Shown here piece by piece: positions 3,574 to 53,936 of a stretch of 64,000 nt of DNA. This DNA is from Patescibacteria group bacterium. GTDB lineage: Bacteria > Patescibacteriota > Minisyncoccia > Phycocordibacterales > UBA918. The DNA is taken from positions 26,449-90,448 of the forward strand of contig JBCCYW010000002.1 of the NCBI GenBank assembly GCA_039188945.1, given 5' to 3'. A model generated the notes under the pieces. That model was not told where the DNA came from. It saw only the letters and a program-made list of their open reading frames with translations, and did no database searches. How positions within the stretch are numbered: the first letter of the stretch is position 1; each line of letters opens with the position of its first letter. A program made the position numbers and the translations under genes.

Positions 3574-3581
3574 AGGTGTAT

Positions 3582-4649: not shown

Positions 4650-4651
4650 AC

Positions 4652-5017: not shown

Positions 5018-5025
5018 TAAAAATA

Positions 5026-6831
5026 TTATACGTCACTTAGAGGAGAAGTTTCAGTTTGGTTATCGACAGGAGCAGTTACGTCGTCGGTCACATTTTCTAA
5101 ACCGACTTTTGTACCAAATGCATTCATTTCTTCGTAGGGAATCTTATGTTCGAGTGCTTTGATAATTGCATCTTCTTTCATCGTCATAAACCCATTCTCG
5201 CGAGCACTAAGAAAAATATCTTCTTCAGCGGCATTAGACAAAATCATTTCTTGAATCCGCTCATCAATCTCCAGCACTTCCATGATGGCGATACGCCCCT
5301 TCAAACCAGTCGCACACTGTGGTGAAGGTTCTGGGTGCATGATGGTATCAGCCTTAGGGATCGCACCCTTGAATTTGTCTGGCAAGGTACTAAATTCCTT
5401 TTGCATCATGACTTCAATAGCTTTATTAATTTTTTCTTCTCGTCCAGTGCCTTCACATAGTCGTTTCGCCAAGCGCTGTGCAATTGCCAATTTTAGTGTC
5501 GGCGCAATCAAATATGGGTCTACTCCCATATCAATGAGTCGCGGGATAACGCCAATCGAGTTGTTGGTGTGAATGGTAGAAAGCACCAAGTGACCGGTCA
5601 GTGCAGCCTGAATCGCCAATTGCGCAGTTTCTTTATCTCGGATCTCACCAACCATGATAATGTCAGGGTCCTGACGCAACGCAGCTCGCAAGCCGTGGGC
5701 AAAGGTGTAGCCAATTTCAGGACGTACCTGCGATTGACTCACGCCATCGATGTTATATTCCACCGGATCTTCAAGCGACAGCACATTTTTGGTAGCGCGG
5801 TCTACTTCTGACAGCATGGCGTAGAGCGTTGTTGACTTACCAGATCCAGTTGGACCAGAAATCAGCATGATGCCGTACGGCTCTTTAATCATTCGGCGAA
5901 TCACCTCGAGATGGTGTCCACCAATACCGGTGTCTTCAAGGGTCGTAACACCTTTTTCGTTATCTAAAATACGCATTACGACCTTTTCGCCGTGATTAGT
6001 TGGCAATACTGAGACACGGAAATCAATCTTACGCTCATCAAACGTAGCGGAGAAGCGACCGTCTTGAGGCTTGCGTCGTTCGTCCAAGCGCATAGAAGAC
6101 AAGATCTTAATGCGAGCCACCACAGCAGAGTGTGTCTTCTTCGGCAGTTCAAGACTGGTTGCCAGTGAACCATCAACTCGAAATCGTACTTTAATTTTTC
6201 CACCGGTTGGCTCAACGTGGATATCAGACGCTCCACCATCTACTGCGTATCGCAAAATAGTGGCCACGATCCGAGTGACGGGCGCGTCTTCTTTAATATG
6301 ATCAAGGTCTTCTTTTGGGAGATCTTTCTCCTCTTCTGCCCGGCGGGCGATTTCTGCATCAAGATCATTTTCTAGAGTAGTGAGTGCTTCACCAACTTCT
6401 CCACTGAGGTTTTCATAAAATGTGTGAGCGGCTTCGATATCACTATCGAGCATGAAGTGCAACTTGTACGGCAAATTATGCTTGGTACTAATATAGTTGA
6501 GCACTTCTCGGACTTGTAGATCGTCTGGATTATTACTCCCCACCAACAGCACATCATCCTCAATTTTCAGTGGCACAACCCGATAATGGCGAGCCGACTC
6601 TTCAGGAATGTACCCCAGCACACCTTCGGCCAAGCGCACACCTTCGGGTAACTCATAACTTGGCACCTGATAGTATTCAGCAATTTGTTCGCGCACAACA
6701 GATTTCTCAAGACCCATGTCGAGAAGCGCCTGCTCCTCGCTAATGCCCGCATTAGTGATGGCCGCCCTGACCTCCTCCGCCTGGGCTTCACTGATGACTT
6801 CATGTTCAATTAAGAAACTGAGTCGATCCAT
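5026..6831 (-). CDS. pilB: Type IV pilus assembly/extension ATPase PilB (GspE family)
   Basis: 601 aa. N-terminal GspII_E domain, Walker A GPTGSGKST, and a tetra-Cys-like region. Confidence 0.9.
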   Translation of the reverse strand: MDRLSFLIEHEVISEAQAEEVRAAITNAGISEEQALLDMGLEKSVVREQIAEYYQVPSYELPEGVRLAEGVLGYIPEESARHYRVVPLKIEDDVLLVGSNNPDDLQVREVLNYISTKHNLPYKLHFMLDSDIEAAHTFYENLSGEVGEALTTLENDLDAEIARRAEEEKDLPKEDLDHIKEDAPVTRIVATILRYAVDGGASDIHVEPTGGKIKVRFRVDGSLATSLELPKKTHSAVVARIKILSSMRLDERRKPQDGRFSATFDERKIDFRVSVLPTNHGEKVVMRILDNEKGVTTLEDTGIGGHHLEVIRRMIKEPYGIMLISGPTGSGKSTTLYAMLSEVDRATKNVLSLEDPVEYNIDGVSQSQVRPEIGYTFAHGLRAALRQDPDIIMVGEIRDKETAQLAIQAALTGHLVLSTIHTNNSIGVIPRLIDMGVDPYLIAPTLKLAIAQRLAKRLCEGTGREEKINKAIEVMMQKEFSTLPDKFKGAIPKADTIMHPEPSPQCATGLKGRIAIMEVLEIDERIQEMILSNAAEEDIFLSARENGFMTMKEDAIIKALEHKIPYEEMNAFGTKVGLENVTDDVTAPVDNQTETSPLSDV

Positions 6832-6838
6832 AGTACCG

Positions 6839-7168
6839 TTAATTAGTTGAGATTGGAGTCACGACTCCAGAAACTGGCTGAAAAGGGTTGTCTCGACCAA
6901 TTGGTAATGTCGGCACGGGACGATCAAATGACAGCAAGCTCTCAAAGCGGGCATCTGTAAATAAATCAAGTTGTAAATCGATTTGCCGTAATTCGTTTTG
7001 TCGTGCAATGAAAGTTTGAGCATCTCGCTCCAACTGTAGAGTGAGCTGCTCGTTGGTCGTGTCAAGCAAGAGTTCACCCTGCTGCAGGTAGAGATAGTAA
7101 CCAACTCCTGCTATGAGTAAGAAGCCGACGATGACAACTGCATTTTGAATGATGTTTCCCATATGCAT
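6839..7168 (-). CDS. Small single-TM pilus-operon protein (possible PilP-like component)
   Basis: Internal ATG (MHMGNIIQNAVVIVGFLLIAGV...) lies 2 nt after the pilO stop. The track ORF extends upstream through the pilO 3' end, so the shorter start is preferred. TM segment plus coiled coil. Function inferred only from position. Confidence 0.4.
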   Translation of the reverse strand: MHMGNIIQNAVVIVGFLLIAGVGYYLYLQQGELLLDTTNEQLTLQLERDAQTFIARQNELRQIDLQLDLFTDARFESLLSFDRPVPTLPIGRDNPFQPVSGVVTPISTN

Positions 7169-7169
7169 A

Positions 7170-7784
7170 TTACAATCTTCCCTGAGCCGGGTTATCTTCT
7201 GGCACGAGCCTTGAGTACGTCTCAACGACCAGATTCATTTTCATTGTATCAGTCCCCAATGACACCCCCTCTTCTCCCGCTTCAGCAGGTGCTGCATTGA
7301 GTGCATACACGTGCAACGGATAATCATTCTGTTCAAGATTCAGCAAAAACTGCTTGATGCTTTCATAGGTACCAGTGACTTCAACATCAAACCGATATGA
7401 CGTGAATGAATCAGGCAATGCATTGACCACATTACTAGTACTTGAGTCACCTTCTGTTACATCGCCAACCGAGAGTCCTTCGAGGATAACATTACTCTCT
7501 TGGGCAATTGTGTCGATATCCCGCAATACCCTGAGCTGATCGACGGTGTCTGGCATAAAGCGGATCAATGATAATCGATCGTCTGCTGAGACAGCGCTCA
7601 CTTGAGCAACCAGATCAGCCAAGAGCGTATTTACTTCAGCAACTTGTGCGGTAGCTCGATCAAGCTCTGCTATGTCGTCTTGCACCTGTCTGATCTCAGC
7701 AAAGGTCGGCATGACATACGTGAAGCCAATCACGACAGCGATGATAGCGATAGCAATTTGCACAAATACGTTATAGTGCATCAT
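7170..7784 (-). CDS. pilO: Type IV pilus assembly protein PilO-like
   Basis: N-terminal TM, coiled coil, then a C-terminal domain. Positioned after the pilN-like gene in the operon. Confidence 0.6.
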   Translation of the reverse strand: MMHYNVFVQIAIAIIAVVIGFTYVMPTFAEIRQVQDDIAELDRATAQVAEVNTLLADLVAQVSAVSADDRLSLIRFMPDTVDQLRVLRDIDTIAQESNVILEGLSVGDVTEGDSSTSNVVNALPDSFTSYRFDVEVTGTYESIKQFLLNLEQNDYPLHVYALNAAPAEAGEEGVSLGTDTMKMNLVVETYSRLVPEDNPAQGRL

Positions 7785-8509
7785 ACGTCAGTTGGGTTAT
7801 CGACTACTTCTGGCAATTCACTTTCCTCTTCAACCACACCATCAGCTTCTACGGGAACCTCCTCGACCGGGACGACAACATCGTTTTGTTCACTAAATGT
7901 ATCAGCAATATATGCGATTGCTTGACTATCAAGATTAAGTGATACCACTGCCTCAATTACCTCTTCGCCGGTGTTCAACGTATCAGTTTCATCAGTTTCA
8001 GTCTTACGAGCGACATTACCAACAAACTGAGCAACAAAGGCATCTTCATCGATAAACGTATCTCGCTGGAAAATAGTTGAATTGTACGTGTCTGTAACGA
8101 CTGACGCCGTAACATTAATCTCTTCATCACCATCTCTCGTCACCTGAATATCCTTAATCTCAACCGACGCGACAACCGCCTCTTCAAGTAGTCTAAAGAT
8201 CTGACTGGTCGCTAAGTGATTATCCATCCGGTCACCCGCAAAGTTCAACCGGTGCTCAAATTCTTTCACCATCTCGAGATCGCTCTGACTAAAACTATCA
8301 ATCAAGGTTGAAAGGCTCTTTTGTTTCTCTACCAACGACGCTTGGAGTTGTAGTTTGTAGATAAATACCCCAGCCGCTGAGAGAACGGCAGCAAAAATAA
8401 GTACGTATGCAACATACGAAAAGACATACACTCGACTAACATTTTTTTTACGCGAGCGTTTAACTGGGTTTCGAGTAGGAATAAATGAAGCACCTGGACC
8501 ATCCGCCAT
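7781..8509 (-). CDS. pilN: Type IV pilus assembly protein PilN-like (acidic C-terminal extension)
   Basis: Basic cytoplasmic N-terminus, a single TM (VYVFSYVAYVLIFAAVLSAAGVFIY) and a periplasmic coiled coil. Overlaps pilO by 4 nt. Confidence 0.6.
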   Translation of the reverse strand: MADGPGASFIPTRNPVKRSRKKNVSRVYVFSYVAYVLIFAAVLSAAGVFIYKLQLQASLVEKQKSLSTLIDSFSQSDLEMVKEFEHRLNFAGDRMDNHLATSQIFRLLEEAVVASVEIKDIQVTRDGDEEINVTASVVTDTYNSTIFQRDTFIDEDAFVAQFVGNVARKTETDETDTLNTGEEVIEAVVSLNLDSQAIAYIADTFSEQNDVVVPVEEVPVEADGVVEEESELPEVVDNPTDV

Positions 8510-8563
8510 CTACTTATTATATGTCTATTGCTCTAGATTTTTGTCCATTGGTGTGGACACATC

Positions 8564-9640
8564 TTATTCAAAGTTACGTAATGCCGCACCAAGTGCCGTT
8601 GTAAAACTTGGCCCAATAGTAGTAATCAGGTCTTCCATAAAGGCTGGATAGGCAACCTTAGCAAAGGGGTTAGCGATCTCAATGTCTCGCTGGAGCGTAT
8701 CAGTGATCATGCCAGGCAGTCCAACAAACTGCACAGGGCCACCAATCACAACCACCCGCTTGATAGTCGTCCCTTCCAGAGACTCATACTCCTCAATCAC
8801 TCGCCGGAACTCACCCAGCGCCCGCTCAAAACAAGATTCGTGTACTTTTGCGATATCCCGGTAGTGCTCATCTCCCTTATGCACCCCACGTTTTCGCAGC
8901 TCAGCGTCCTGAAACGAAATATCGTGAGCTTTAGCTAACCGATTTGTGCACATCGCTCCACCAGCCCGCACTCGATGCATTCGGTGCAGCAAACCAGACT
9001 CAGCAATATAGAGCTTGCTTGAAGCAGCACCCAGATCGATCACAGCTGTTGTAGCATCATCAAAGTCCGTCACGCCGCGAATGGCACTGAAACATTCAAT
9101 TTCGGAGGGTTGGCTCGGCATATTAACGTGACGCATGAGCGTGCGTAATCGCTCAAGGCCCTCGTTCTGGATCGCTGCCAATAGCACCCGGCGCTCGTTA
9201 GTGTCCTCGGGATGCAGAGTGTCGATTTCAGCCCAGTCGAGGGTGACATCAGAAATTGGAACTGGGATGTACTTTCTCGCTTCAACCCGAATCCGTGATG
9301 AAATATCCTCATCAGGACGAGCCTTCATTTCCATCACCGTCACAAAGCTCGACGCCAAGGGCATAGCAAACACGGCCTGACGAGCTTTAACGGCCGACTC
9401 ACGAAGGACGTCCACTAAAGCCGTCTGTTCTTGCTTCGGCTGCAAGACAACTGTCTGACCCAGCTCCTTATCTGCGTAAGGGCCAATCTGAACTTCACCG
9501 TACGTAGTGAGGGTGACAACATCATTTCGATCCTCAAGCTCAACCAGTTTGATCGAGGAAGAACCAATATCGATACCAACCACCTTGCCTGAGGTCTTTG
9601 CTGGCTGTCTGAGATTAGAAAAAATGTCTAAGAGTGCCAT
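8564..9640 (-). CDS. pilM: Type IV pilus assembly protein PilM (actin-like ATPase fold)
   Basis: VVGIDIGSSSIKLVELE phosphate-1 motif and a second DLGAASSKLYI motif, typical of PilM/FtsA. Confidence 0.8.
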   Translation of the reverse strand: MALLDIFSNLRQPAKTSGKVVGIDIGSSSIKLVELEDRNDVVTLTTYGEVQIGPYADKELGQTVVLQPKQEQTALVDVLRESAVKARQAVFAMPLASSFVTVMEMKARPDEDISSRIRVEARKYIPVPISDVTLDWAEIDTLHPEDTNERRVLLAAIQNEGLERLRTLMRHVNMPSQPSEIECFSAIRGVTDFDDATTAVIDLGAASSKLYIAESGLLHRMHRVRAGGAMCTNRLAKAHDISFQDAELRKRGVHKGDEHYRDIAKVHESCFERALGEFRRVIEEYESLEGTTIKRVVVIGGPVQFVGLPGMITDTLQRDIEIANPFAKVAYPAFMEDLITTIGPSFTTALGAALRNFE

Positions 9641-30640: not shown

Positions 30641-30715
30641 CCACCCATAGCTCAATCGGTAGAGCGCGAAGCTTATACCTTCGTGGTTCCAGGTTCAAGT
30701 CCTGGTGGGTGGACC
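30641..30715 (+). tRNA. tRNA-Ile (anticodon UAU)
   Basis: Hand-folded. Acceptor CCACCCA/TGGGTGG, D arm GCTC/GAGC, anticodon stem CGAAG/CTTCG with loop CTTATAC, T arm CCAGGTTCAAGTCCTGG, discriminator A and encoded CC. Confidence 0.7.
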
Positions 30716-37830: not shown

Positions 37831-38277
37831 ATGAGTGATTTAGCCCGTAACCGCAAAGCCACGTTTGATTACGAAATTCTCGACACCTTCGAGGCTGGTT
37901 TGGTATTAACCGGCCATGAAGTCAAAGCAATTCGCAATGGCAAGCTTAAACTAGAAGGTTCACACGTGGTAGTTCGGGGCGGTGAGGTGTTTTTGGTCGG
38001 TACAAATATCGCTCCCTACCAACCCGCCAACGCTCCCAAAGACTACGACCCTGAACGCACCATCACCCTTCTCCTCAATCACAAAGAAGTGGCTCAACTA
38101 GAAGCTAAAAGCGAACAACGTGGCTTGACAATAGCACCAATTCGTTGTTATAATAAAGCCGGAAAAATCAAGCTTGAAATCGCTATCGTGCGTGGTAAAA
38201 AGAAGCAAGATAAGCGCGAAACGATCAAGGCACGCGATGTCAAACGCGACATCGAACGAACGTTAAAAAATCAATAG
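37831..38277 (+). CDS. smpB: SsrA-binding protein SmpB
   Basis: KATFDYEILDTFEAGLVLTGHEVKAIR and a basic C-terminal tail. tmRNA lies 1 kb downstream. Confidence 0.9.
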   Translation: MSDLARNRKATFDYEILDTFEAGLVLTGHEVKAIRNGKLKLEGSHVVVRGGEVFLVGTNIAPYQPANAPKDYDPERTITLLLNHKEVAQLEAKSEQRGLTIAPIRCYNKAGKIKLEIAIVRGKKKQDKRETIKARDVKRDIERTLKNQ

Positions 38278-39243: not shown

Positions 39244-39637
39244 GGGGATGACAGGCATCGACGGTTAGCGGTTTAAATATATGTGCAGTGTCGCAGCTGA
39301 ATACTGACTGCGTTACAACAGTGTTCACTTGTACGTGCAAAGAATAGCGTACCAAGCCCATACGCCAAGGCGTTTGGCTTCGCTCCCGCTGTAGCGTAAC
39401 TCTACGCTCGCCGAAGCGACATCAGACTACCCCACTTCTCATAAGGTAGCCCTGGTGTAATAACCATGAGAATATAGTCAACGATTGGTCAGGTCGTTGA
39501 TCGAATTTCTTATGACTCGAACCTAACGTGTTTTGTTACTTCTCAAGCTTTAGGTTTTAAATCAAAGGAGTGACTACGCACTGTAGACTCATGTATTTGC
39601 CCTAACTCGGACGGGGGTTCAACTCCCCCCATCTCCA
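39244..39637 (+). ncRNA. ssrA: tmRNA (ssrA), one-piece
   Basis: 5' GGGGATGACAGGCATCGACGG (compare E. coli GGGGCUGAUUCUGGAUUCGACGGG). The 3' tRNA-like end is GGACGGGGGTTCAACTCCCCC-CATCTCC-A, whose acceptor strand pairs with the 5' end. Candidate tag ORF GCA AAG...GTA GCG TAA encodes (A)KNSVPSPYAKAFGFAPAVA. Confidence 0.8.
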
Positions 39638-41152
39638 CATACTGGGAACCTTTAGACGGTTTCTGCTTAAATAACCTTACTGGTATTGATAGATTTCCGG
39701 TTCCAAAACCATTTTCTGGACTATACGTGATAGGTTCGTTAAAGACTAGTTTTAGAACTAGTCTTTTTCGTTGAAAATCACCTTCTATCCAGTATTTGCT
39801 TGGATTCTTCAATATAGAAAATACTGCCTGTAATGCGGTTCCAAAATCTTCCTCCTCTACATTAGATTTCTTAGTTGCAGCCAGTAGTTTTTGTCTCTCA
39901 TCATCTATTTCTTCTACGCGCTTCTCATAAGCTCTCGCCACCTTTTCCTTGTCAGCACCGGCTACTCGACTGATTAACCTGTTCTGTTCTTCATCTAGTT
40001 CCTTCAACTGTCTATGAGCTTTGTTGATCTTTGCTTTTAGTTGAGCCGCCCGACTATTCCACTCTTCAAGAAAGATAGCTTCTACTAGTCCCGTCGCATT
40101 TTCTGAAGGTTGTAGTTTCTTAAGTAAGGAAACAAACTGTTTTTCCATCTTATGACCATTGAAACTCTTCTTGCAGCTATCGCAGTTCTTTTCGTTTCTA
40201 CCTCGATAGTACGGATATTTTTTTGTCCTACCCACACTCCAACTAGCCGTCATTGGAGTACCGCATGCTTCACAACAAACAAACCCCTTAGTGGAAAGTC
40301 TGGATTATCATTCTTTCGCTTCTTGAGTATCGGTTTACCAGCAACTATTGCATCCAATTTCTCCAGAATTTCGTCATTGATAATTGCTTCATGGTGACCC
40401 TTTCTCCTATCAATATCCCATTTTGGATACTCAATATAGCCAGCATACAAAACTCTTCTTTCAATCAACCTATCGACTAACGATAAGTGTATGGCCTTTC
40501 CATCCTTGAAGTCATGTCTGGTTAGGAAATTTTTCACTTCAGTCCTACTCAGAAACCTTCCGTTTGCAAAACCCTCAAGTGCTTCAAACACTAGAACGGA
40601 CTTTATTTCATCCTTAACCAAGAGCCACCCACCCAGAGCGTGCTGCTGGCGTTTATAACCAGGTATAACAGAACCAAAAGTCCAGTACCCCTTTTCCATA
40701 CGAGCTTTCATTTTTTGTATTACCTGAACTCGATTAGTTCTTCTTTCGTTTTCATTAAATACAGCAGATATGGCCTCATGTAACCAGGTACTTTCATCAT
40801 CCTTGAATTCAAAATTTGGGGAATCAACAATGGCTCCAAGTTTTTTAAAATGATCCCTGAGTTGCCAGTGACTAATAGTATCTCTGGCTAACCTTTTTAA
40901 ATCATCGAAAATAACCACATACTCTTTGTGTCCGTTGTCAGCAATATACTCCAGCATTTCAGCCATCTTTGGTCTCTTCATGTAGTCACCACCGCCAGTG
41001 AAACTGTCAGGAAACACACGCTCAACCTTATATCCAAGTCTAGCTGCGTATTCGCGGCACCTATGTTCTTGGCTATCAAGACCATGTCCGTCATTCTTTT
41101 GACGTTCAGATGAAACCCTACAATAAATTAAAGCCTTCCTTTCCATAATCAA
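39543..41152 (-). pseudogene. Large serine recombinase, split by a frameshift
   Basis: 40250-41152 encodes the resolvase catalytic domain (ALIYCRVSSERQ, catalytic Ser) and recombinase domain. 39543-40253 encodes the zinc-ribbon CxxC...CxxC and coiled-coil region in another frame. The junction lies in aaggggtttgtttgttgtg, where frame A reads GLFVV* and frame B reads GFVCCEACG. The last roughly 30 codons are antisense to the tmRNA 3' end. Confidence 0.75.
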
Positions 41153-41352
41153 AATGTATCGTATTTAGAAAACTCCTCGTCCAAGATTCCAACAATCAAT
41201 TCTTGTAATCCATCACGAATATCTTCGATTTCTTTATCGCTTAACTTAGTTTCGCCCAGATATTTTCGACATTCTTCGATAGACAACATAAAAAGCATCT
41301 CGCCTGAGATGCCTCCTACTTTCGGTACACAACACAAGGAAATAGGAAGCAC
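41149..41352 (-). CDS. Small hypothetical protein overlapping the recombinase start (possible excisionase/RDF-like accessory)
   Basis: Overlaps the recombinase by 4 nt (ATGA). Acidic C-terminus. No family recognised. Confidence 0.3.
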   Translation of the reverse strand: MLPISLCCVPKVGGISGEMLFMLSIEECRKYLGETKLSDKEIEDIRDGLQELIVGILDEEFSKYDTF

Positions 41353-41476
41353 TACAGACTTCTTTATTCCCTGAAATTATGTGCTTAGCTTCTAACGCTA
41401 AGTTGTACTTAAATACTAAGTGGCTCTTCTGCACTCCGCAAACAGTAGTGCGTGGATAGTATTTAAAATGCAGTAA

Positions 41477-41815
41477 CTAGTTACAGTTTGTTGCTTCAGA
41501 TTTACCGACAGTGTACGTTCCATTTGAACCATTTTGAATACTCTCTTTCTCCTCTGGCAAATATGCAAACACTGTTACCTCATCGGCATTTAAAAGATAT
41601 TTGTCCCGAATGAAATCCAATGTTCGCTGATATGCTCCTGAGTTATCGATGACAACATACACTGTTTCTCTTTTACATCCAGGATATGAATCATCTCTCA
41701 CTGTTACAACCTCGTAGTCCAAAGGTTTAAACGTGCTTGTGGAGCCCAAATTCTCGTTCTGGGACTCTGGAACTAGTGAACCTATAAAGATAGGGCTAGT
41801 ATCCCAAACGTGCAA
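41477..41815 (-). CDS. Hypothetical protein (island cargo)
   Basis: 112 aa. First gene of the minus-strand island operon. No family recognised. Confidence 0.35.
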   Translation of the reverse strand: MHVWDTSPIFIGSLVPESQNENLGSTSTFKPLDYEVVTVRDDSYPGCKRETVYVVIDNSGAYQRTLDFIRDKYLLNADEVTVFAYLPEEKESIQNGSNGTYTVGKSEATNCN

Positions 41816-42011
41816 TATATAAATTTTTTCATGGTTACCGGCTTATTGTTTCTAAAGCACTATAAAACCCTCACCAAGGTTTTATAGTCCGAAGACCAGC
41901 CGGTAACCAAACACAGCCCTTGATGAGGGGTTTATAAGTTTGGTTACCGGCTTTATTCAGTTGTGAGTAGATTATGCCATAGTAATTCATGATTTACACT
42001 TTTAGTGTATA

Positions 42012-43217
42012 GTGTCCTTCATGAGCTTCTTCAATGAAGAAAACGTTCCTGGATTCATTCCTAAAGTTATGGACGGAAAGATAACTGAGTGGACTGATGG
42101 TATGGACTTCTTAGCGATTGATTTAAACCACGTGAAATGGCGTGGGAATGTTCTACCGTTATTGCGTGACCATACACCAAAACTACTTGTTGATCCTGTG
42201 ACTCACAAGGCGTTCTTTTCTGACGCAAAATCAAAAACAAACTTCCAAAAAATTGGCTATCCTGATATCGAACCTGAGTTACTGTATTCGGAAAAACGTC
42301 ACCGTTCTGAATTTATTGAACTCTCAGTGAATGAACAATTGACTGCGGGAGCAAATGCCATAATTGCACCCTACCTATACACTCCAGACACAGACGACAC
42401 AAAGTTTGCAGTTAATTTAACTCTGCTGTCAGAGACTTTGGTCTACCTGGAGCAAAACGAGATTGATTTACCAGTATTTGCAAAAATTTGTACTCACTCT
42501 CAAATACTCACCAGACAATTAGTTATTAACAATATCGTCAGTCGATACTGTGATGACTACTCTGATAGATTGGAAGGTGTCATACTGAGCATCACTGATT
42601 TCGATGCGAGAAAGAACGATTTACCTCACCTTCTTGGTCTAGCTAATTTGGTACACCAACTTCAAGCACGCACTAAAGTTCTTCTATCTCCGATGGGTGG
42701 TTACGGGGAGGTCTTGTTGGCTTTAGGGGCAGCAGCTTTTTCGAGTGGCATCCATGAAAGTGAAGGGATTACAGTCAAACAGCTCCAAGAAGGGTCTGGT
42801 GGTAGTGAACATATTCACCAACGCATCTATATTCCGGAGATTTTAAATTACATCAACTACGAGGAAGCTGCAAAAATTGGCTACGTGGGTACCTCAACTG
42901 GTTGCAACATTGACTTTAATGATTCTGAACCATCTGCGGAAACAAAAAAGAGACACTATTTAAACAACAGAGTAGCTACAATCGCTACACTTAGAGGAAA
43001 AAGTCGGGAAGAAAAAATCAATTTGATGATTGGTAGTATTTCTTCTGCACAACGATTGCTCACAAGATATATTAGAGACCATGAACTTCTAGTAAGAAAT
43101 GACTTTCACGCGCGCTGGATTCAAGTACTAGAGCAAGCTCGAACTTGGAGCGATCCAGAAACAGACAATGAAGAACTTGAGGCGTTATTAGCAGAAATCG
43201 ATAAGTCAGATGATTAA
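42012..43217 (+). CDS. Hypothetical 401-aa protein, upstream partner of the PIN protein
   Basis: No recognisable catalytic motif. Predicted cytoplasmic. Its stop overlaps the PIN gene start by 8 nt, suggesting translational coupling. Confidence 0.5.
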   Translation: MSFMSFFNEENVPGFIPKVMDGKITEWTDGMDFLAIDLNHVKWRGNVLPLLRDHTPKLLVDPVTHKAFFSDAKSKTNFQKIGYPDIEPELLYSEKRHRSEFIELSVNEQLTAGANAIIAPYLYTPDTDDTKFAVNLTLLSETLVYLEQNEIDLPVFAKICTHSQILTRQLVINNIVSRYCDDYSDRLEGVILSITDFDARKNDLPHLLGLANLVHQLQARTKVLLSPMGGYGEVLLALGAAAFSSGIHESEGITVKQLQEGSGGSEHIHQRIYIPEILNYINYEEAAKIGYVGTSTGCNIDFNDSEPSAETKKRHYLNNRVATIATLRGKSREEKINLMIGSISSAQRLLTRYIRDHELLVRNDFHARWIQVLEQARTWSDPETDNEELEALLAEIDKSDD

Positions 43218-43671
43218 GATTGTTCCAGACACAAATGTCTTAGTGGGGAGCATGCTTGGCGGAGGAGGACCGAAGCGTTGGGTAATCAATCTAGCTCTCG
43301 AGAAAAAAATAGCTCTCTATGGTTCTTCGGTCTCTTATGCTGAATTTATGGATGTCATTCAGCGTGAAGAATTCAAACCATATCTTGAGAAGCAAATTTA
43401 TACTGTTGAGAAATTAGAGCATGACTACAAATCAGTCATTACGATAGTTGATACTGAAGGTGTTTATGAAGGAATTACCATTACTGAAGACCCAGATGAT
43501 GACGAATACTTTAGAATCGCAAAAGCTGAAGGAATAAAAGTTATTGTTTCTGAAGATAACCACTTAAGGAAAGTAGGGAGATACGAGGATATTAGAGTAG
43601 TGACAGCAAAACAATTTACAGACTCCTACATCTCAGCTATCGCAAAGACTGAACATCCTTCTTCAAACTAG
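43210..43671 (+). CDS. PIN-domain protein (putative toxin-antitoxin toxin component, PIN family, TIGR00305-like)
   Basis: IVPDTNVLVGSML first acidic motif, ITEDPDDDEYFRIAKAEG, and IVSEDNHL: conserved Asp/Glu positions of PIN nucleases. Confidence 0.7.
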   Translation: MIKIVPDTNVLVGSMLGGGGPKRWVINLALEKKIALYGSSVSYAEFMDVIQREEFKPYLEKQIYTVEKLEHDYKSVITIVDTEGVYEGITITEDPDDDEYFRIAKAEGIKVIVSEDNHLRKVGRYEDIRVVTAKQFTDSYISAIAKTEHPSSN

Positions 43672-44320
43672 CGCTCCAAAAATACTCTGAGGCGTAATCC
43701 CTTTTATTTAAATTGAAAGGCGTAATCCTTTTTGCAGCGACTGGATAATACTTCGCTTCAGTATCAACATCGAAACCAATCAGCCCAACTCCATACTTCC
43801 TAACTTCTGATACTGGTATGTTTTTAATTATCTTACTAGGTACCGCCAAATAAGATCTATGTGCGAATGATTTATAACGAGCAGCCTGCTGTAGACCTTT
43901 TTTCCAATCATGAAGTTTTGCTTCAATAGCAATGAGTTCTTTCGATATAGGTAGCCATCCGTTAATTTTCAGATAGTAGCTTTTTTCCACCTCTCGAATA
44001 TATCCAGCTTTTTTTAGCCTCGGGATAACAGAGTACCTCAATGTTCCTCTGGACATTGAGATTTGTGCTTCGATTTCTGAGATATGAGTTGGTACATCCG
44101 TATGTTCGTAGTCGGCAATCTTATCCAGAATTTTAAAGTAGTTCTCACTGAGAAGTCTCGTGTGTTGATTATGTCCTAAGCGCTTCAATACCTTGCCTCT
44201 GTTGGGTTTAAATAAAACTAAATCAGCAATTCCATAACCAACACCAACCTCCCGATTGGTGTAAAAACCATCTTTAATGAACTGTTTTTCTAATTGCCTA
44301 ACGAAAAATGCTTCGGTCAT
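43637..44320 (-). CDS. PD-(D/E)xK-like nuclease-fold protein with a possible inserted winged helix
   Basis: GIADLVLFK and LIAIEAK segments resemble motifs II/III of Hjc/restriction-endonuclease-like folds. By-eye assignment only. Confidence 0.35.
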   Translation of the reverse strand: MTEAFFVRQLEKQFIKDGFYTNREVGVGYGIADLVLFKPNRGKVLKRLGHNQHTRLLSENYFKILDKIADYEHTDVPTHISEIEAQISMSRGTLRYSVIPRLKKAGYIREVEKSYYLKINGWLPISKELIAIEAKLHDWKKGLQQAARYKSFAHRSYLAVPSKIIKNIPVSEVRKYGVGLIGFDVDTEAKYYPVAAKRITPFNLNKRDYASEYFWSASLKKDVQSLR

Positions 44321-44334
44321 ACAATGGCCATTAC

Positions 44335-44826
44335 TTATACTCTAACATTTTGACTAATTACAGGTGAGACAGTTGTATACACTGGCTCAGAGTGCGAAAA
44401 TTCATTCGGCATCTTCCACTTCAAATACGCCAAAGCTGCCCGCCAGTCTCCCTGCATCGTGAATGCATCAATAAATGCCTTCCTTGCTGACAACGTGGGT
44501 GTCATCCTGAAACTTTCGAGAGTGTTGCGAAATTCAGGATGTTTAGCACTAAAGCGATAGAATGAATCTCTCGAAATACCTGCGTAAAAACAAGCCTCTG
44601 TTACTGTGCAGTCGATGGCGAACGCACGTGCCAATTTCACAACAACTACCCCCGGGTCTACCCCTCCGAACGTCTTTCTACCTCTAGTGGTATTACTCGG
44701 TGTTGACACACATTTATCGGTTACTGCATCGGTGCAGTAACGTATAGTTCTATCTAACTCTTGGAGAGTTAGTATTCTATTACTAGTATGTGTATGTAAT
44801 GGAGTACTAATATCAAGCAAATACAA
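44335..44826 (-). CDS. HTH DNA-binding protein (phage terminase small subunit-like HTH)
   Basis: EACFYAGISRDSFYRFSAKHPEFRNTLE resembles the HTH of phage TerS/P27-type proteins. Confidence 0.35.
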   Translation of the reverse strand: MYLLDISTPLHTHTSNRILTLQELDRTIRYCTDAVTDKCVSTPSNTTRGRKTFGGVDPGVVVVKLARAFAIDCTVTEACFYAGISRDSFYRFSAKHPEFRNTLESFRMTPTLSARKAFIDAFTMQGDWRAALAYLKWKMPNEFSHSEPVYTTVSPVISQNVRV

Positions 44827-44979
44827 GGTTATTCTTCTCTTCTCCCTGCTCCTTTAGAACCACGTGCATATCAAATATCCACTGCTGCAATACATCCCAG
44901 TTCTCCCGCACCGTGTCCACCAATCTCTTCTTATTTGAACACAAAACCCTCACTTAACAGTGAGGGTTTTGTGTAGTAT

Positions 44980-46113
44980 CTAGATTTCTCTCAAAATATC
45001 TACCAGCTTTCTATTGACGTAAACTTTCTGTTTTTTGAAAGTCCCTGAATGTTCGATTACTCCAAGTTTTTCTAATATCTCTACGTAACGCTGAACAGTA
45101 GACGAAGGGATATCAGTGAATCTAACAATAAATGGAACAGTGAAGAAAGGATTGCAGAAACTGTAATCCAGGACTTTAATCAAGTTAATGTTTGTTGACT
45201 GAGCAGTCGCTTTTTCAAAAGCATCTTTATAAAGCGAATCAATTTTTAACACCAACTGTAGTGAAAGTTCTGCCTGAAACTGAATCCCCTTCAAGAAAAA
45301 CAGCAACCATGTCTTCCACTCCTCCTTTTTATCAACCTTAGAAAGTGCATCCATGTAATCACTTTTATTTTCTTCAAAATAACCACTTGGATACAAAATC
45401 GGCATATCAAGTAACCCTTGATCAACCAAATAGAGAGTGATTAACAGCCTACCGACACGTCCGTTACCATCTTCGAAAGGGTGAATTGCCTCAAAGCGAT
45501 GATGAATAACACCACACGCAACTAAAGGATTAGTCTTACCTGCATCTTTTACATATGAGGATAGTACTTCCATCATTTTTGGAACATGAACAGGATCTGG
45601 CGGTAAATAACGTGCTTTACCTTTACTTGTTCCCAACTTACCAATCCACACCTCTTTCTTCCGATACTCTCCAGGACTTTTATCTTCACCTCTCACACCA
45701 GTCATTAACGTCTTATGCATTTCACGAATTGCCATTTCATTTAACCCATACTTCTTCAGAGCTACTAACCCCTTCCTCATTGCAGACTCATAGTTTCTAA
45801 TCTCTAAAGCATCATTTCGCTTCTCAGCGGTCTGCTCAGTAAGATCAATTTGATACGCGTCTACAATGGAGGCCTGAGTTCCCTCAAGCTGAGAACTTGA
45901 CTCTGCTTCCTTTGCAAGAATAGGTGCCATAAGTAAATCAGGGTTCTGTAATAACCTTGAAGTTTGTAACAAACTCTTAACAGCACCCTGTGTTTCTGCA
46001 AGTTGATTCGCAAAATCTTCATCATAGATTTCACCTAACTTTGGAGGGAAAACGTGTTCTAAAAGTGTTTTTGACATTAACCCGAATATAGCATTTTCTG
46101 GGTTAATTGTCAC
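44980..46113 (-). CDS. Fic-family protein (AMPylase/adenylyltransferase), class II with N-terminal inhibitory motif
   Basis: Fic motif HPFEDGNGRVGR. Inhibitory-helix motif SSQLEG matches [ST]xxxE[GN]. C-terminal winged-helix extension. Confidence 0.85.
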   Translation of the reverse strand: MTINPENAIFGLMSKTLLEHVFPPKLGEIYDEDFANQLAETQGAVKSLLQTSRLLQNPDLLMAPILAKEAESSSQLEGTQASIVDAYQIDLTEQTAEKRNDALEIRNYESAMRKGLVALKKYGLNEMAIREMHKTLMTGVRGEDKSPGEYRKKEVWIGKLGTSKGKARYLPPDPVHVPKMMEVLSSYVKDAGKTNPLVACGVIHHRFEAIHPFEDGNGRVGRLLITLYLVDQGLLDMPILYPSGYFEENKSDYMDALSKVDKKEEWKTWLLFFLKGIQFQAELSLQLVLKIDSLYKDAFEKATAQSTNINLIKVLDYSFCNPFFTVPFIVRFTDIPSSTVQRYVEILEKLGVIEHSGTFKKQKVYVNRKLVDILREI

Positions 46114-46341
46114 ACATTAACTCATAACTGGGTTGATCTCAACTCATCGACCCATAAATACAAAAATCTGACTTGGTGTTTAAAGTCTAAGAAGTCATTG
46201 ATTGTATTGCGATTTAACCAATTTTCTATATATTGGTTTAGGGTGCACAGATCTCCACATAACGGAAATTAAAAGCTAGCTTTATGCTGGCTTTTAATTT
46301 TGGTGTAGTATAGAAAATACAATAATACTTTTGACTGCATT

Positions 46342-48565: not shown

Positions 48566-49104
48566 ACACGTATGTCGCCCTTCTCAGGGGAATCAATGTT
48601 GGTGGAAATAACAAAATTGAGATGACTAAGCTCAAAATGGGCTTTGAAAAGTTTGGCCATAGTGATGTTCAGACCTACATCAACTCTGGTAACGTCATTT
48701 TTTCGTCCCACACCAATGACATTGCTGCCCTCACCAACGAAATAGAAGCAATGATCAATAAAGATTTTAAGCTCGACATTCCGGTCGTGCTCCGCAGCAA
48801 AGAAAGCATAATGAAAGTTTGTAAAAAAATTCCTGCTGCCTGGACCAATGATAAAGAGCAAAAGACCGATGTGATGTTTCTCTGGGATGAATACTCAAAC
48901 AAGAAAACCCTGAAGCTCATCGAGCAAAATCCTAAGGTCGACACACTTATATATGTAGACGACGCCATTGTCTGGCACCTTAAAAAGAAAGATTATTCCA
49001 AGAGCAAAATGCACGACCTAGTCAGCACTAAACTTTATAAAAGCATGACCGTTCGAAACGTGAATACGGTACGAAAGTTGCAAGAACTTATGTCTCAAGA
49101 CTAA
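48562..49104 (+). CDS. DUF1697-family protein
   Basis: MNTYVALLRGINVGGNNKI...YINSGNVIF is characteristic of DUF1697. Confidence 0.65.
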   Translation: MNTYVALLRGINVGGNNKIEMTKLKMGFEKFGHSDVQTYINSGNVIFSSHTNDIAALTNEIEAMINKDFKLDIPVVLRSKESIMKVCKKIPAAWTNDKEQKTDVMFLWDEYSNKKTLKLIEQNPKVDTLIYVDDAIVWHLKKKDYSKSKMHDLVSTKLYKSMTVRNVNTVRKLQELMSQD

Positions 49105-49760
49105 AATCCGCAGACTTCGGCGCCTTTCACTGATGCTGGCTTTTCACCGCAGCGTTCGTGCCAAGCCATGACGTTTTTGTATTCATCTAAGCTAAGACGA
49201 TCTTTAGCACCATAGCCCCAATCGAGGCAGCCCACCCACGGGAAAGTAGATATATCAGCGATTGAATACTCACCTACCAAATAGTCCTGCCCTTCAAGTT
49301 GCTTCTCAAGCACGCCGAGGAGTCGTCGCGTTTCGTTGGCGTATCTCTCGACTGGGTAGGGGTGGTCGCAGTTGTCTTTGCCAAACCTAAAGAAGTGACC
49401 AAACTGCCCAAACATCGGACCCACGCCCGCGTTCTGGAAGAAGAGCCACTGAATTGTCTCGCTCCGCTTGCCAGCGTCGCTCGACATCAGCTTCCCACTC
49501 TTATCTGCGAGATAGATCAGGATCGCTCCCGACTCAAACACACGGTGCTCTTCCCCGTCTGGACCATCTGGATCAATAATAGCGGGAATGCGGCCGTTTG
49601 GGTTCACGCGTGTCGTGTAGTCTTCGGTTTTAAGCTCGCCATTACTGAGATCCATGCAATGTGCCTCGTACTCGAGACCCATTTCTTCTAAAGCAATCGA
49701 GATCTTCCGCCCATTTGGCGTTGCTCGGGTATAGAGTTGAATTGGTTGTGACATATGCAT
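49101..49760 (-). CDS. Glutathione S-transferase
   Basis: N-terminal thioredoxin-like GST domain (IQLYTRATPNGRKISIALEE...ESGAILIYLADK) and a C-terminal helical domain. Confidence 0.8.
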   Translation of the reverse strand: MHMSQPIQLYTRATPNGRKISIALEEMGLEYEAHCMDLSNGELKTEDYTTRVNPNGRIPAIIDPDGPDGEEHRVFESGAILIYLADKSGKLMSSDAGKRSETIQWLFFQNAGVGPMFGQFGHFFRFGKDNCDHPYPVERYANETRRLLGVLEKQLEGQDYLVGEYSIADISTFPWVGCLDWGYGAKDRLSLDEYKNVMAWHERCGEKPASVKGAEVCGF

Positions 49761-49814: not shown

Positions 49815-50549
49815 CTACAATAGCGCGTCTCCTAGAATTTGGTCGAGTTTTTTTAGATCATTTGGTTCAACACCGATGAGTTGCAATTCTTTTTCTTGAT
49901 AGAGTGCGGTTTTTTCCTCTCGATCTTTTTGGTAACGTCGGTCGGTCAGTCCCCAGAATTCGATAAAGTATCCATCTGTTACTTTAGAGCCACCTGGAAT
50001 ATAAAAATCACATCGCTTTACCCCAAGCTCTTTTAAAAATGGTTCGTAGGCATGGGCAATACCGTGTTGATACAGCCAATTATCAATTTCTAATTCCCCT
50101 TTACTGCGCACAAAATGGCCATCGTCAGTAACGTACGAAAAATCATCTGAACTGTCAGGCAATCGCTCATCTTGGATGAGTAGTGAATTGATAATCGAAA
50201 CTTGTTCATCATCAAGTCGAGCGGGTGGATACTTTTTAAACCGTAGAAGATGCCAATAGTCTTGACGAGAAATCGGTTTGTACTCTTTTACCCGTTTCAC
50301 TCGAACTTGCCATGGGAAGCTGCGGCCACTAGTTTCCCAGGCGTCAGGTTCAATATTCATCGCTCCATCCGATACAGCTTCAAAAGCCCCATGAATTTTC
50401 TTGGTCTGATAATTGAAAAGGAATAAGGTATCCCCAGCTCGTACTTCACCAGTTTTCTTTTCGTAGCCCTCCATGCCACCAAACAGTTCCCGCTCGAGAC
50501 ACTCTTGTTCGGTTACTCGTGAACACAGAAATACGTGACCTACTTTCAT
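49815..50549 (-). CDS. DCD (development and cell death)/PUA-like domain fused to a DUF559/Vsr-like restriction-endonuclease-fold domain
   Basis: N-terminal GHVFLCSRVTEQECLERELFGG...GDTLFLFNYQTKKIHGAFEAVSDG...WQVRV matches the DCD domain blocks. C-terminal ELEIDNWLYQHGI...KRCDFYIP...GYFIEFWG resembles the DUF559/Vsr endonuclease core. The internal ATG is chosen because the TTG-extended track ORF overlaps the DUF1059 gene. Confidence 0.5.
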   Translation of the reverse strand: MKVGHVFLCSRVTEQECLERELFGGMEGYEKKTGEVRAGDTLFLFNYQTKKIHGAFEAVSDGAMNIEPDAWETSGRSFPWQVRVKRVKEYKPISRQDYWHLLRFKKYPPARLDDEQVSIINSLLIQDERLPDSSDDFSYVTDDGHFVRSKGELEIDNWLYQHGIAHAYEPFLKELGVKRCDFYIPGGSKVTDGYFIEFWGLTDRRYQKDREEKTALYQEKELQLIGVEPNDLKKLDQILGDALL

Positions 50550-50628
50550 GCTCGCACTATACTGATATCTAAAAATAAAGCAAAGAGCGGCCAACAAGTT
50601 GGCCGCTCTTTGCTTTTTAACTTCCACC

Positions 50629-50871
50629 TCACTCAGCGTCCTCTGGAGCATCGTCAAACGCCTGCTTGTACGAAGCGAAGGCTTTTTGCTGCTCTTCTGG
50701 TGATTTACTTTTCATTGCTTCCATCATAGCGATGTAGTCTTCATTGCCCGCCGCGATCATTTCCATCGCGCGCGCTTTGCATTTTTCTGCTACTTCTTCG
50801 AAGGTTTCTCCAGATACTTGAAAGTCGTCGCTCGCTGGACAACCCAAGTCTCGTACATATACAGTTTTCAT
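50629..50871 (-). CDS. DUF1059-family small protein
   Basis: MKTVYVRDLGCPASDDFQVSGETFEEVAEKCKARAMEM matches the DUF1059 N-terminal pattern. Confidence 0.6.
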   Translation of the reverse strand: MKTVYVRDLGCPASDDFQVSGETFEEVAEKCKARAMEMIAAGNEDYIAMMEAMKSKSPEEQQKAFASYKQAFDDAPEDAE

Positions 50872-52778: not shown

Positions 52779-53351
52779 TCAAGAAGCCCTTCTGCCTCGA
52801 CCTCGCCGACGCGAGCGTATTGTAGCCAATGGCTGGTAGGCGACTGCCACATGATGTTCGCAGTACGGCTTACCAGGAGCGCAGGGTAGGCCACAAAAAT
52901 AGAAGTTCTCTTCAGCTGGATCCCCGATCGGCCATTTGCACGTTCTTTCGGTAAGTTCGAGTAAGCTGAGCTTTTTAGCCTGCGGATTGATTTTGCTCAG
53001 AAGGTCTTCAGCCAACTTTCGCTCTGCAGCCTCATCAACTTGCGGAATTGGCTTCCGCGGATGATTGAATGGATTCCCGGGTCGCGGTCTCTGGCTCGGG
53101 CGTGCTGGTGATGCTTCGACAGCAAGAGGGATAGTCTCTGGCTGATTTTTAGGCTGCTTATTTTCTTCGCCATCACCACCTTTTATTTTTTCACCTTCAG
53201 ACTGTCTGCTAGTAAGGCCAAGTCGATGAATCTTTCCAATCACACCGTTCCTGGTGACACCGCCCAGGGATTTGGCTATCTGCGAAGCCGACATTCCTTC
53301 GGCCCATAGCTTTTTTAGTTTTTCAACTCGCTCGTCTGTCCATGAAGACAT
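52779..53351 (-). CDS. gcrA: GcrA-like cell-cycle regulator family protein
   Basis: MSSWTDERVEKLKKLWAEGMSASQIAKSLGGVTRNGVIGKIHRLGL N-terminal DNA-binding domain. C-terminal CKWPIGDP...FCGLPC...PYCEHH. Strong RBS aaaggagattgctATG at the internal start. Confidence 0.7.
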   Translation of the reverse strand: MSSWTDERVEKLKKLWAEGMSASQIAKSLGGVTRNGVIGKIHRLGLTSRQSEGEKIKGGDGEENKQPKNQPETIPLAVEASPARPSQRPRPGNPFNHPRKPIPQVDEAAERKLAEDLLSKINPQAKKLSLLELTERTCKWPIGDPAEENFYFCGLPCAPGKPYCEHHVAVAYQPLATIRSRRRGRGRRAS

Positions 53352-53528
53352 AGCAATCTCCTTTATATAACTGTTTTCTGGCGCTACAGTAGCACGAATT
53401 AGTGAATAGACAATCAATCACCACGCTGCCTTACCGCCAGATCATTTGTTTTATTTTAGCTATCAGCGAATCATCATCTTGTTACAGCAGCCTTACTCCA
53501 CAAACAAACTATAAAAATAACTGGGGCT

Positions 53529-53936
53529 TTGCTATACTCGCCCGACATGACGCCAGGAAAGGTCAAAGTAAAACGCGGATTGGCGGGGCTCGGTTTGTTT
53601 GCTGATCAGGAATTTAAACGTGATGATTTTATTATTGAGTATACTGGTGAACTGATTACCGATGAAGAACGGAATCGCCGGGGTGGAAAATATTTGTTTG
53701 AAATAGATGAAGAGTGGACCATCGATGGAAAAGATCGCAGTAATATTGCTCGCTACATTAATCATGGTTGCAAAAACAACGCCTACGCTGAAGTCGATGA
53801 GGAAGAGAGACGAGTGTTTGTGCGTGCCAAGAAAAAGATCCAGCCTGGCGAGGAGATCACCTTTCACTACGGTAAAGAATACTTTGACGAGTATATGAGT
53901 AACGGCCGTTGTCGGTGCGCGAGCTGCCGTAGCTAA
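53529..53936 (+). CDS. SET-domain protein (lysine methyltransferase-like) with a post-SET Cys cluster
   Basis: GLGLFA...IIEYTGELI, NHGCKNNA, GEEITFHYG and C-terminal CRCASC. Confidence 0.75.
   Translation: MLYSPDMTPGKVKVKRGLAGLGLFADQEFKRDDFIIEYTGELITDEERNRRGGKYLFEIDEEWTIDGKDRSNIARYINHGCKNNAYAEVDEEERRVFVRAKKKIQPGEEITFHYGKEYFDEYMSNGRCRCASCRS

Follow-up and report, generated by a model that had tools for sequence, protein, structure and literature searches.

The window analysed here is a stretch of 64,000 nucleotides from a Patescibacteria group bacterium (contig JBCCYW010000002.1, positions 26,449 to 90,448), and the subject of this report is a minus-strand gene within it, at 49815–50549, that encodes a DCD domain joined to a nuclease domain of PD-(D/E)xK type in a single chain. 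The gene, here termed the DCD-nuclease gene, begins with the ATG at 50547–50549 and ends with the stop codon at 49815–49817, giving 244 codons. Its product is identical to NCBI protein MEM9336419.1 (244 residues), which is entered as "MAG: Patescibacteria group bacterium" (MAG, metagenome-assembled genome) on a 104-kb contig. The evidence for each of the two domains is given first, followed by the relatives and their genomic contexts, and these are then used to weigh the interpretation that the protein is a modification-dependent, type IV-like restriction enzyme.

The DCD-nuclease gene and its two domains

The features of the gene, in window coordinates, are as follows.
49815–50549, minus strand: the DCD-nuclease fusion gene, coding sequence complete (244 residues plus stop)
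50577–50616, minus strand: hairpin resembling an intrinsic terminator (stem of 18 bp, then a T-run), located between the 80-residue gene upstream and the DCD-nuclease gene
50175–50540, minus strand: DCD domain, predicted PUA-like beta-barrel; Pfam match to residues 4–103, structural domain extending to the helix that ends at residue 125
50139–50174, minus strand: linker, residues 126–137, the sole lower-confidence stretch of the model
49818–50138, minus strand: nuclease domain, predicted PD-(D/E)xK fold, residues 138–244, with motifs DGHxVRSxxExxIDNWLY, CDF, YIEFWG and Y..K...Y
50094–50096, minus strand: codon of E152, proposed first catalytic acid, in helix 150–161; invariant
50007–50009, minus strand: codon of D181, proposed catalytic aspartate of the CDF motif; invariant, aligned by HMMER with D305 of AfBax1
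49959–49961, minus strand: codon of E197, proposed catalytic glutamate of the IEFWG motif; invariant, aligned with E318 of AfBax1
49911–49913, minus strand: codon of K213, candidate relocated catalytic lysine, in helix 204–219; invariant

The longest open reading frame (ORF) that can be drawn mechanically in this frame starts at a TTG at 50657. The ATG is preferred because the TTG extension would traverse the hairpin at 50577–50616 and enter the 3′ end of the upstream gene, and because homologues begin at the ATG, which is common to all of them and to MEM9336419.1. The presence of a terminator upstream of the DCD-nuclease gene implies that the gene is transcribed separately. The RNA feature scan found nothing that overlaps the gene, whether Rfam family, tRNA or any other RNA feature, and the short ORFs of 51–64 residues on the opposite strand are without support. 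The gene is intact. The coordinates assigned to it in the first-pass annotation are exact, and the motifs quoted there, HVFLCSRVTEQECLERELFGG, TLFLFNYQTKKIHGAFEAVSDG, RCDFYIP and YFIEFWG, are all found in the translation.

The N-terminal half matches PF10539 (DCD, Dev_Cell_Death) over residues 4–103 with E=2e-27 and 95.9 bits, against a gathering cut-off of 27.8, and all 35 family members match the same profile. The DCD hallmark motifs F-x-C..T..EC, LFG, LFL(F/Y)N, G.F.A.S, A(W/F) and FP.QV are all found in the window protein and are kept both in the nuclease family and across 99 DCD proteins. The AlphaFold2 model of the full protein, computed with an alignment of 35 homologues, has a mean predicted local distance difference test (pLDDT) score of 93.4; the block of residues 131–140 averages 70, and the linker is variable and gap-rich in the family alignment. 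Foldseek comparison with the PDB returns as top matches the EVE-like proteins MJECL36 (2p5d) and PH1033 (1wmm, 2hd9) at E ∼2e-6 to 1e-5, together with ∼70 YTH chains at E<1e-3, including complexes with RNA containing N6-methyladenosine (m6A) and with DNA containing N6-methyladenine (6mA); the EVE-like and YTH matches together span E values of 2e-6 to 4e-4. A sequence profile also reaches MJECL36 (E=1.5e-4), pairing LFGG of the DCD domain with IWGV. Because the Pfam match, the model, the Foldseek matches and the profile all point the same way, the N-terminal half is assigned as a genuine DCD domain with a predicted PUA-like (EVE/YTH-type) reader fold, as the first-pass annotation had proposed.

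Residues F7, T13, E16, C17, G24, L44, G54, A58, A70, W71 and Q81 are conserved across the nuclease family and, with the exception of W71, are also nearly invariant across the best 99 DCD proteins; the listing of conserved residues for the DCD feature adds F23, as F23-G24, and N46. These residues may include those that line a ligand pocket and are candidates for that role. An exhaustive HMMER search with the DCD domain, superseding a word-indexed homologue search with the DCD alone that had given one match, recovered DCD matches in 1,614 representative clusters. The nuclease motif of the family is present in 22 of the best 149 of these 1,614 clusters. Several others of the best 149 look eukaryotic, having several DCD copies and extended disordered regions, an origin judged by sequence alone, and such multi-DCD proteins are among the best matches to the window DCD, at E values from 1e-26 to 1e-33. 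All of the best 99 DCD proteins match PF10539, and only two of them have another Pfam partner, NYN in the one case and DUF4357 in the other.

Two sets of sequences were used to judge conservation in the C-terminal half: the 35 DCD-fusion homologues, and a set of 36 in which other fusion types are also represented. The invariant residues of the nuclease domain are G144, H145, V147, E152, Y168, D181, F182, E197, W199, G200, Y206 and K213. In the predicted models the order of secondary structure elements is that of the PD-(D/E)xK core, and acids stand at its catalytic positions: E152 at the glutamate of helix 1, D181 at the aspartate of strand 2 and E197 at the acid (D/E) of strand 3. The canonical lysine of the (D/E)xK motif is absent, its position being occupied by the invariant W199, and K213 may substitute for it.

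Comparison of the family profile with PDB sequences gives a match to archaeal Bax1, in its nuclease domain (6p66_B, E=0.008), and this alignment pairs D181 with D305 and E197 with E318. In AfBax1, E275, D305 and E318 are the proposed metal-binding residues, and substitution D305A lowers nuclease activity (PMC7293015). E152 lies 29 residues before D181, and AfBax1 E275 lies 30 before D305 (PMC7293015); we infer that E152 corresponds to E275. Bax1 also has the same E-x-x-G variant as the nuclease domain. A separate model of residues 130–244 has a pLDDT of 85, and its nearest PDB folds in Foldseek are Bax1, TnsA, AF1548, NucS/EndoMS, tRNA-splicing endonuclease, VRR-NUC and Hjc, all of which belong to the PD-(D/E)xK superfamily and none of which is individually significant (best E=0.015). 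The full-length model also has matches among viral models, to proteins annotated as DUF2726, DUF559, restriction enzyme and homing endonuclease, with E values of 7e-5 to 1e-3 over ∼100–120 columns at ∼3 Å. In PADLOC, the PDC-S69 profile matches with E=2.3e-26 over profile positions 180–281 of 289, and the PDC-S68 and HEAT_CxxC_PD-DExK models also match the nuclease domain. These results support the prediction that the C-terminal half is a nuclease of PD-(D/E)xK restriction-endonuclease fold with invariant acidic residues.

Membership of three established families was considered and rejected. The first-pass annotation had described this half as DUF559/Vsr-like, of which the restriction-endonuclease-fold nuclease stands and the family membership falls: the Pfam scan of the C-terminal half gave no match at E≤10 in the window protein, DUF559/Vsr (PF04480) included, and none of the 35 members matches PF04480 at E≤1. 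An hhalign comparison with a DUF2726/DUF559-type protein from homologue locus L088 gave a probability of 0.3%, which is not significant; the DF and IExxG motifs do align. Membership of Bax1/DUF790 is rejected on the grounds that PF05626 is matched by 1 of 35 members, at E=0.017, and that no XPB gene is adjacent. The window protein is likewise not a PDC-S69 member, because its match is limited to the C-terminal third of the model, whereas true members match positions 5–288. The family should be labelled a "Bax1-like PD-(D/E)xK variant" rather than DUF559. The reading of this half as a nuclease survives because conserved residues of catalytic type are present in the alignment, namely the invariant E152, D181, E197 and K213, with D181 and E197 falling on catalytic residues of Bax1. 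At L088 itself, the DUF2726 gene (5440–5973, with a faint DUF559 match) is a second small gene of PD-(D/E)xK type directly upstream of homologue P0016.

Relatives, homologue loci and surroundings

Full-length DCD-nuclease proteins form ∼35 clusters of 240–270 residues with 30–63% identity, nearly all metagenomic, and there are also tandem variants of 383–402 residues with two DCD domains. The family is centred on metagenomic contigs of Patescibacteria or candidate phyla radiation (CPR) type, with a few archaeal members. A scan of 185,579 species genomes, one per species, found full-length matches in four, from Saccharibacteria, Parcubacteria, Thaumarchaeota and Thermoplasmata; the scan used exact peptide patterns, so divergent members may escape it. 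Loci were located with a 13-sequence subset of the alignment, the full set of 35 being too diverse.

The nuclease module alone is far more widespread, with at least 545 matches across bacteria and archaea, and it is joined to varied N-terminal heads, including winged-helix-like repeats, zinc ribbons, helicases and DCD. It stands behind a repeated motif, whose likeness to tandem winged helices was judged by eye only, in Vibrio, Bacillus, Methylomonas and Nostoc; it occurs with zinc ribbons in several archaea; and it is fused to a helicase in a 1,080-residue protein of a Heimdallarchaeota MAG (L013, 1460–4702) and a 614-residue protein of a Bacillales MAG (L079, 125–1969). Such swapping of N-terminal heads on one nuclease module follows the combinatorial scheme seen in type IV enzymes. 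The form of ∼290–310 residues is PDC-S69 itself, and the module also makes up the C-terminal part of PDC-S68. The PDC candidates were chosen by PADLOC, their founders being embedded in BREX, DISARM or type I restriction-modification loci (bioRxiv 10.1101/2024.01.29.577857). The joining of this PADLOC-candidate module to a recognisable sensor in the window protein supports the view that defence proteins use this module as a general effector.

The combination of repeat and module found at L037, L024 and L020 ∼7440–8330 (Vibrio, Bacillus and Methylomonas) is the PDC-S69 architecture. Some sources name proteins of this form "glycerol kinase", and nothing was found in support of that name.

Two homologue loci are informative as to biological setting. 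In the IMG/VR phage contig L090 (UViG_3300028920_002854, 2379–9513), two genes are inserted between those for terminase gpA and a lambda-type portal: a tandem-DCD nuclease gene at 4422–5735 on the plus strand and a gene with a DpnII/MboI-type restriction-enzyme domain at 6102–7391 on the minus strand. The L006 homologue has a type I HsdM gene on one side and, on the other, an integrase gene with an excisionase-type helix-turn-helix. Both contexts point to genetic conflict. An all-against-all BLAST of neighbours across 12 loci gave no conserved adjacent partner gene, and a two-gene system with a partner is excluded in that the shared genes recovered were only distal, syntenic housekeeping genes. 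No methyltransferase gene is adjacent in most of the homologue loci examined, and no helicase gene adjoins the DCD-nuclease gene in the window or in those loci. At several homologue loci, genes for LexA, a Y-family polymerase and Pif1 are found no more than a few kb away.

In L003 (569–6827, on a 402-kb metagenomic contig), a homologue is found just downstream of a pyrimidine-metabolism cluster comprising dCMP deaminase, thymidylate synthase, dCTP deaminase/dUTPase and serine hydroxymethyltransferase, together with a zeta-toxin-like kinase. Enzymes of this kind also produce modified pyrimidines in phages.

Further features of the window that bear on the setting of the gene are as follows.
49101–49760: glutathione S-transferase (GST) gene, a confirmed neighbour
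50629–50871: upstream gene of 80 residues, no Pfam match
39244–39640: tmRNA gene, just downstream of smpB (37831–38277)

The tmRNA gene is followed by a stretch of low GC content, about 0.39–0.42 over ∼40–47 kb and 0.396 over 39640–46200, which contains a serine recombinase split into 39543–40253 and 40250–41152, genes for PIN and Fic (the latter, ending at 46113, being the last gene of island type), and several genes without a Pfam match. The region 39244–46200 looks like an element integrated at ssrA with a disrupted recombinase. The possibility that the DCD-nuclease gene belongs to this tmRNA-linked island is excluded, since the island ends ∼3.6 kb away and ordinary genes (AI-2E transporter, DUF2200, SDR (short-chain dehydrogenase/reductase), DUF1697 and GST) intervene. 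The first-pass annotation had placed the gene in an accessory stretch next to DUF1059 and GST genes. The accessory setting is not supported, in view of the distance to the island, the retention of the trio of 80-residue gene, DCD-nuclease and GST in the closest relative, and a GC content of 0.429, slightly below the 0.466 of the window; of the two neighbours, GST is confirmed and DUF1059 is not, the 80-residue gene having no Pfam match.

A homologue of the cell-cycle regulator GcrA (PF07750, E=2e-47) and a SET-domain gene lie at 52779–53417 and 53529–53936. GcrA is typical of Alphaproteobacteria, where it works with 6mA methylation by CcrM. Its occurrence in a contig labelled Patescibacteria raises a question as to taxonomic binning or 6mA in the host. 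A SET-domain gene is near the DCD-nuclease gene in L087 as well as in the window. The window also contains a tRNA-Ile gene with anticodon TAT (UAU) at 30641–30715; tRNAs of this kind are not often seen in bacteria, which as a rule decode AUA with a CAU tRNA that carries lysidine. A 144-residue ORF at 50897–51331 matches the T4 gp19 tail tube with 22.7 bits against a cut-off of 28.2, a match that is probably not meaningful.

Favoured reading and alternatives

The favoured reading, to which we assign a probability of roughly 55%, is that the product of the gene is a modification-dependent (type IV-like) endonuclease that works as a single chain and independently of nucleotides. The fusion of a reader to a nuclease is the classic design of type IV enzymes, and the window protein has this hallmark in the form of a DCD domain, of predicted modification-sensing (PUA-like) type, and a PD-(D/E)xK nuclease in one chain. 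A stand-alone enzyme of this type also fits with the finding of no DNA methyltransferase motif among the ORFs of at least 120 residues in the 64-kb window, as judged by a coarse regular-expression search, and with the lack of a conserved partner at the homologue loci (cf. PMC6765204). In the proposed mechanism, the DCD domain would flip a modified base from the DNA and receive it in a conserved pocket composed of helix 1 (T13, E16, C17), strand 2 (F23-G24), W71 and Q81, and the PD-(D/E)xK domain would cut the DNA backbone nearby with E152, D181, E197 and probably K213. The enzyme is probably dimeric, by analogy with characterised PUA-nuclease fusions (PMC6765204), and its role would be the destruction of invading DNA that bears a modification without counterpart in the host. 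The domain identities, the predicted folds, the invariant residues of catalytic type, the re-use of the nuclease with other heads and the copies in a phage and a mobile island are observations of the analysis; the binding of a modified base by DCD and the identity of that base, DNA instead of RNA as substrate, dimerisation and the part in defence belong to the prediction.

Several observations weigh against this reading. With respect to the reader, the literature searched contains neither a DCD domain with a demonstrated nucleic-acid ligand nor a solved DCD structure; a 2026 paper describes an attempt to crystallise Arabidopsis NRP's DCD domain, apparently without arriving at a structure of it. 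With respect to the nuclease, the canonical lysine is replaced by W199, the PDB fold neighbours are individually insignificant, and the PDC systems that share the module are candidates by locus context only (bioRxiv 10.1101/2024.01.29.577857). Nor does the gene lie in a defence island in the window. In addition to its position outside the tmRNA-linked island, the same order of 80-residue gene, DCD-nuclease and GST is found in the closest relative (P0002, 63% identity), in which the wider flanks differ, and L001, L004, L087 and L088 have syntenic, non-mobile neighbours: peptidyl-prolyl isomerase, LapA-domain, YgjP-like, small GIY-YIG and MliC. DCD-nuclease identities of 47–65%, compared with 49–71% for syntenic neighbours, indicate similar divergence, and divergence at the pace of housekeeping-type neighbours is unusual for defence genes, which turn over fast. 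The DCD and nuclease domains diverge in step. From these comparisons the DCD-nuclease gene looks to be vertically inherited within a Patescibacteria clade.

A first alternative, which we consider unlikely, is a nuclease of chromosomal housekeeping or repair that a Patescibacteria lineage has kept by vertical descent, in which the DCD domain would sense a damaged or aberrantly modified base in host DNA and the Bax1-like nuclease would incise beside it. Synteny in the closest relative, conserved non-mobile neighbours at the four loci named above, a rate of evolution similar to that of the neighbours and a gene composition near the genome average are all in line with this explanation, as is the fact that the nearest solved sequence relative of the nuclease, Bax1, is a repair nuclease. 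The nearby LexA, Y-family polymerase and Pif1 genes at several of the homologue loci could be added, but the closeness of LexA may be mere synteny within one clade. A repair function is harder to reconcile with the sparseness of the family (4 full-length matches in 185,579 species genomes), with copies in a phage beside a restriction-like gene (L090) and in an island with HsdM and integrase (L006), with the lack of XPB or any other adjoining repair partner, and with the occurrence of the nuclease module elsewhere in defence candidates.

Less likely again is an RNA-directed nuclease, in which the DCD domain would read a modified ribonucleotide and the PD-(D/E)xK domain would cut RNA, whether as a toxin-like effector of abortive infection or as an RNA processor. 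Next after the EVE-like proteins, the fold matches are YTH domains that bind m6A in RNA, and RNA ligands are predicted for eukaryotic DCD in the passages of Bell et al. cited here (PMC7641849), but the characterised prokaryotic fusions of PUA-like domains and nucleases act on DNA (PMC6765204). Similarly, the fold neighbours of the nuclease include the RNA-cleaving tRNA-splicing endonuclease and viral cap-snatching endonucleases, and one related DCD protein has an NYN RNase domain, whereas the nuclease's nearest relatives in sequence and its fusion partners (apparent winged-helix repeats, helicase, zinc ribbon) suggest DNA, and the phage and restriction-modification-island contexts suggest a conflict over DNA. 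Least probable, a catalytically dead or non-nucleolytic DNA-binding protein, acting as a regulator or reader only and keeping a degenerate nuclease fold, would account for W199 in place of the canonical lysine and for the weak PDB fold matches, but not for the strict invariance of three acids and K213 in 35–36 diverse sequences across fusion partners, nor for the activity of Bax1 with the same E-x-x-G variant.

DCD has been treated in plant biology since 2005 as a cell-death and stress domain, with its biochemistry unexplained. A compact DCD-nuclease of 244 residues offers a cut/no-cut readout of DCD recognition on defined modified DNAs. More speculatively, and at low probability, the Patescibacteria DCD-nuclease may be an enzyme of the chromosome under stable inheritance, its DCD domain being the close counterpart in prokaryotes of plant and algal DCD; in that case its cleavage specificity would reveal the DCD ligand, because the reader is wired directly to the nuclease. 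If true, this would provide a molecular function for the plant DCD/NRP cell-death proteins, and the ligand could be a modification outside the reach of known type IV enzymes. The protein could also bring a new specificity to the modification-dependent restriction enzymes used for epigenetic mapping.

Comparison with known systems

Vsr and DUF559 proteins share with the window nuclease a broad fold class and a superficially similar D-F ... E-x-x-G pattern, and viral DUF559/DUF2726 proteins are fold neighbours of the window model, yet there is no Pfam match at E≤10. Bax1 (DuPrez et al., 2020, PMC7293015) and the window nuclease both have the pattern E...(P/C)DF...YIE(I/F)xG...Y..K, and Bax1 is the best PDB fold match of the window nuclease, albeit a weak one (E=0.008 by profile, 0.015 by fold). 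Unlike Bax1, the window protein has no XPB partner, Cas2-like domain or N-terminal Bax1 domain. The C-terminal module of PDC-S69 (Payne et al., bioRxiv 10.1101/2024.01.29.577857) is homologous to that of the window protein. PDC-S69 proteins are ∼290–310 residues long and are found in Bacteroidota, Vibrio, Bacillus, Methylomonas and others; their N-terminal half has ANT/KilAC matches or, by eye, winged-helix-like repeats, and no DCD domain. Plant DCD proteins (NRP and relatives) belong to the same PF10539 family as the window protein and have the same hallmark motifs, but they have no nuclease, and it is by way of protein partners that they function in the signalling of stress and cell death.

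Parallels are also offered by the type IV EVE-HNH enzymes VcaM4I and TspA15I and the EVE-DUF3427-PD-(D/E)XK enzyme YenY4I (Lutz et al., 2019, PMC6765204; Pastor et al., 2021, PMC7897488), in which, as in the window protein, an N-terminal PUA reader precedes a C-terminal nuclease. All are single chains; the EVE enzymes have no cognate methyltransferase nearby, and for the window protein the coarse motif search among ORFs of at least 120 residues in the 64-kb window gave none. The window protein has DCD as its reader instead of EVE or SRA, and a Bax1-like PD-(D/E)xK variant instead of HNH as its nuclease. A preference for 5-methylcytosine and 5-hydroxymethylcytosine has been demonstrated for VcaM4I, TspA15I and YenY4I, whereas the reader function of the window protein is a prediction. 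PUA-nuclease fusions were screened by Lutz et al. (2019, PMC6765204), and DCD was not among them.

The first-pass annotation had called a bacterial DCD-nuclease uncharacterised. This holds for experiments, the literature searched containing no experimental work on any DCD-nuclease, but not for prediction. In the passages cited here, Bell, Wolf & Koonin (2020, BMC Biol 18:159, PMC7641849) place DCD among the EVE-like proteins of the PUA superfamily, report that prokaryotic DCD domains are fused to PD(D/E)XK nucleases, McrB-like domains and methyltransferases, and predict that these fusions restrict modified DNA. The window protein resembles the fusions in those passages in joining DCD to PD(D/E)XK and in being known from prediction only, a likeness of architecture rather than a comparison of nuclease modules, and is a further case of the kind forecast there in 2020. 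The same passages describe prokaryotic DCD as rare and mostly from archaea and hyperthermophilic bacteria, in contrast to the window family, which is centred on Patescibacteria and CPR-type contigs and has a few archaeal members. Those passages of Bell et al. make no mention of tandem-DCD variants, of a phage copy or of a link to PDC-S69. What is new here is accordingly the identification of the nuclease as a PDC-S69-type, Bax1-like module, the tandem-DCD variants, the phage-borne copy and the apparently stable vertical inheritance of the gene in a Patescibacteria clade.

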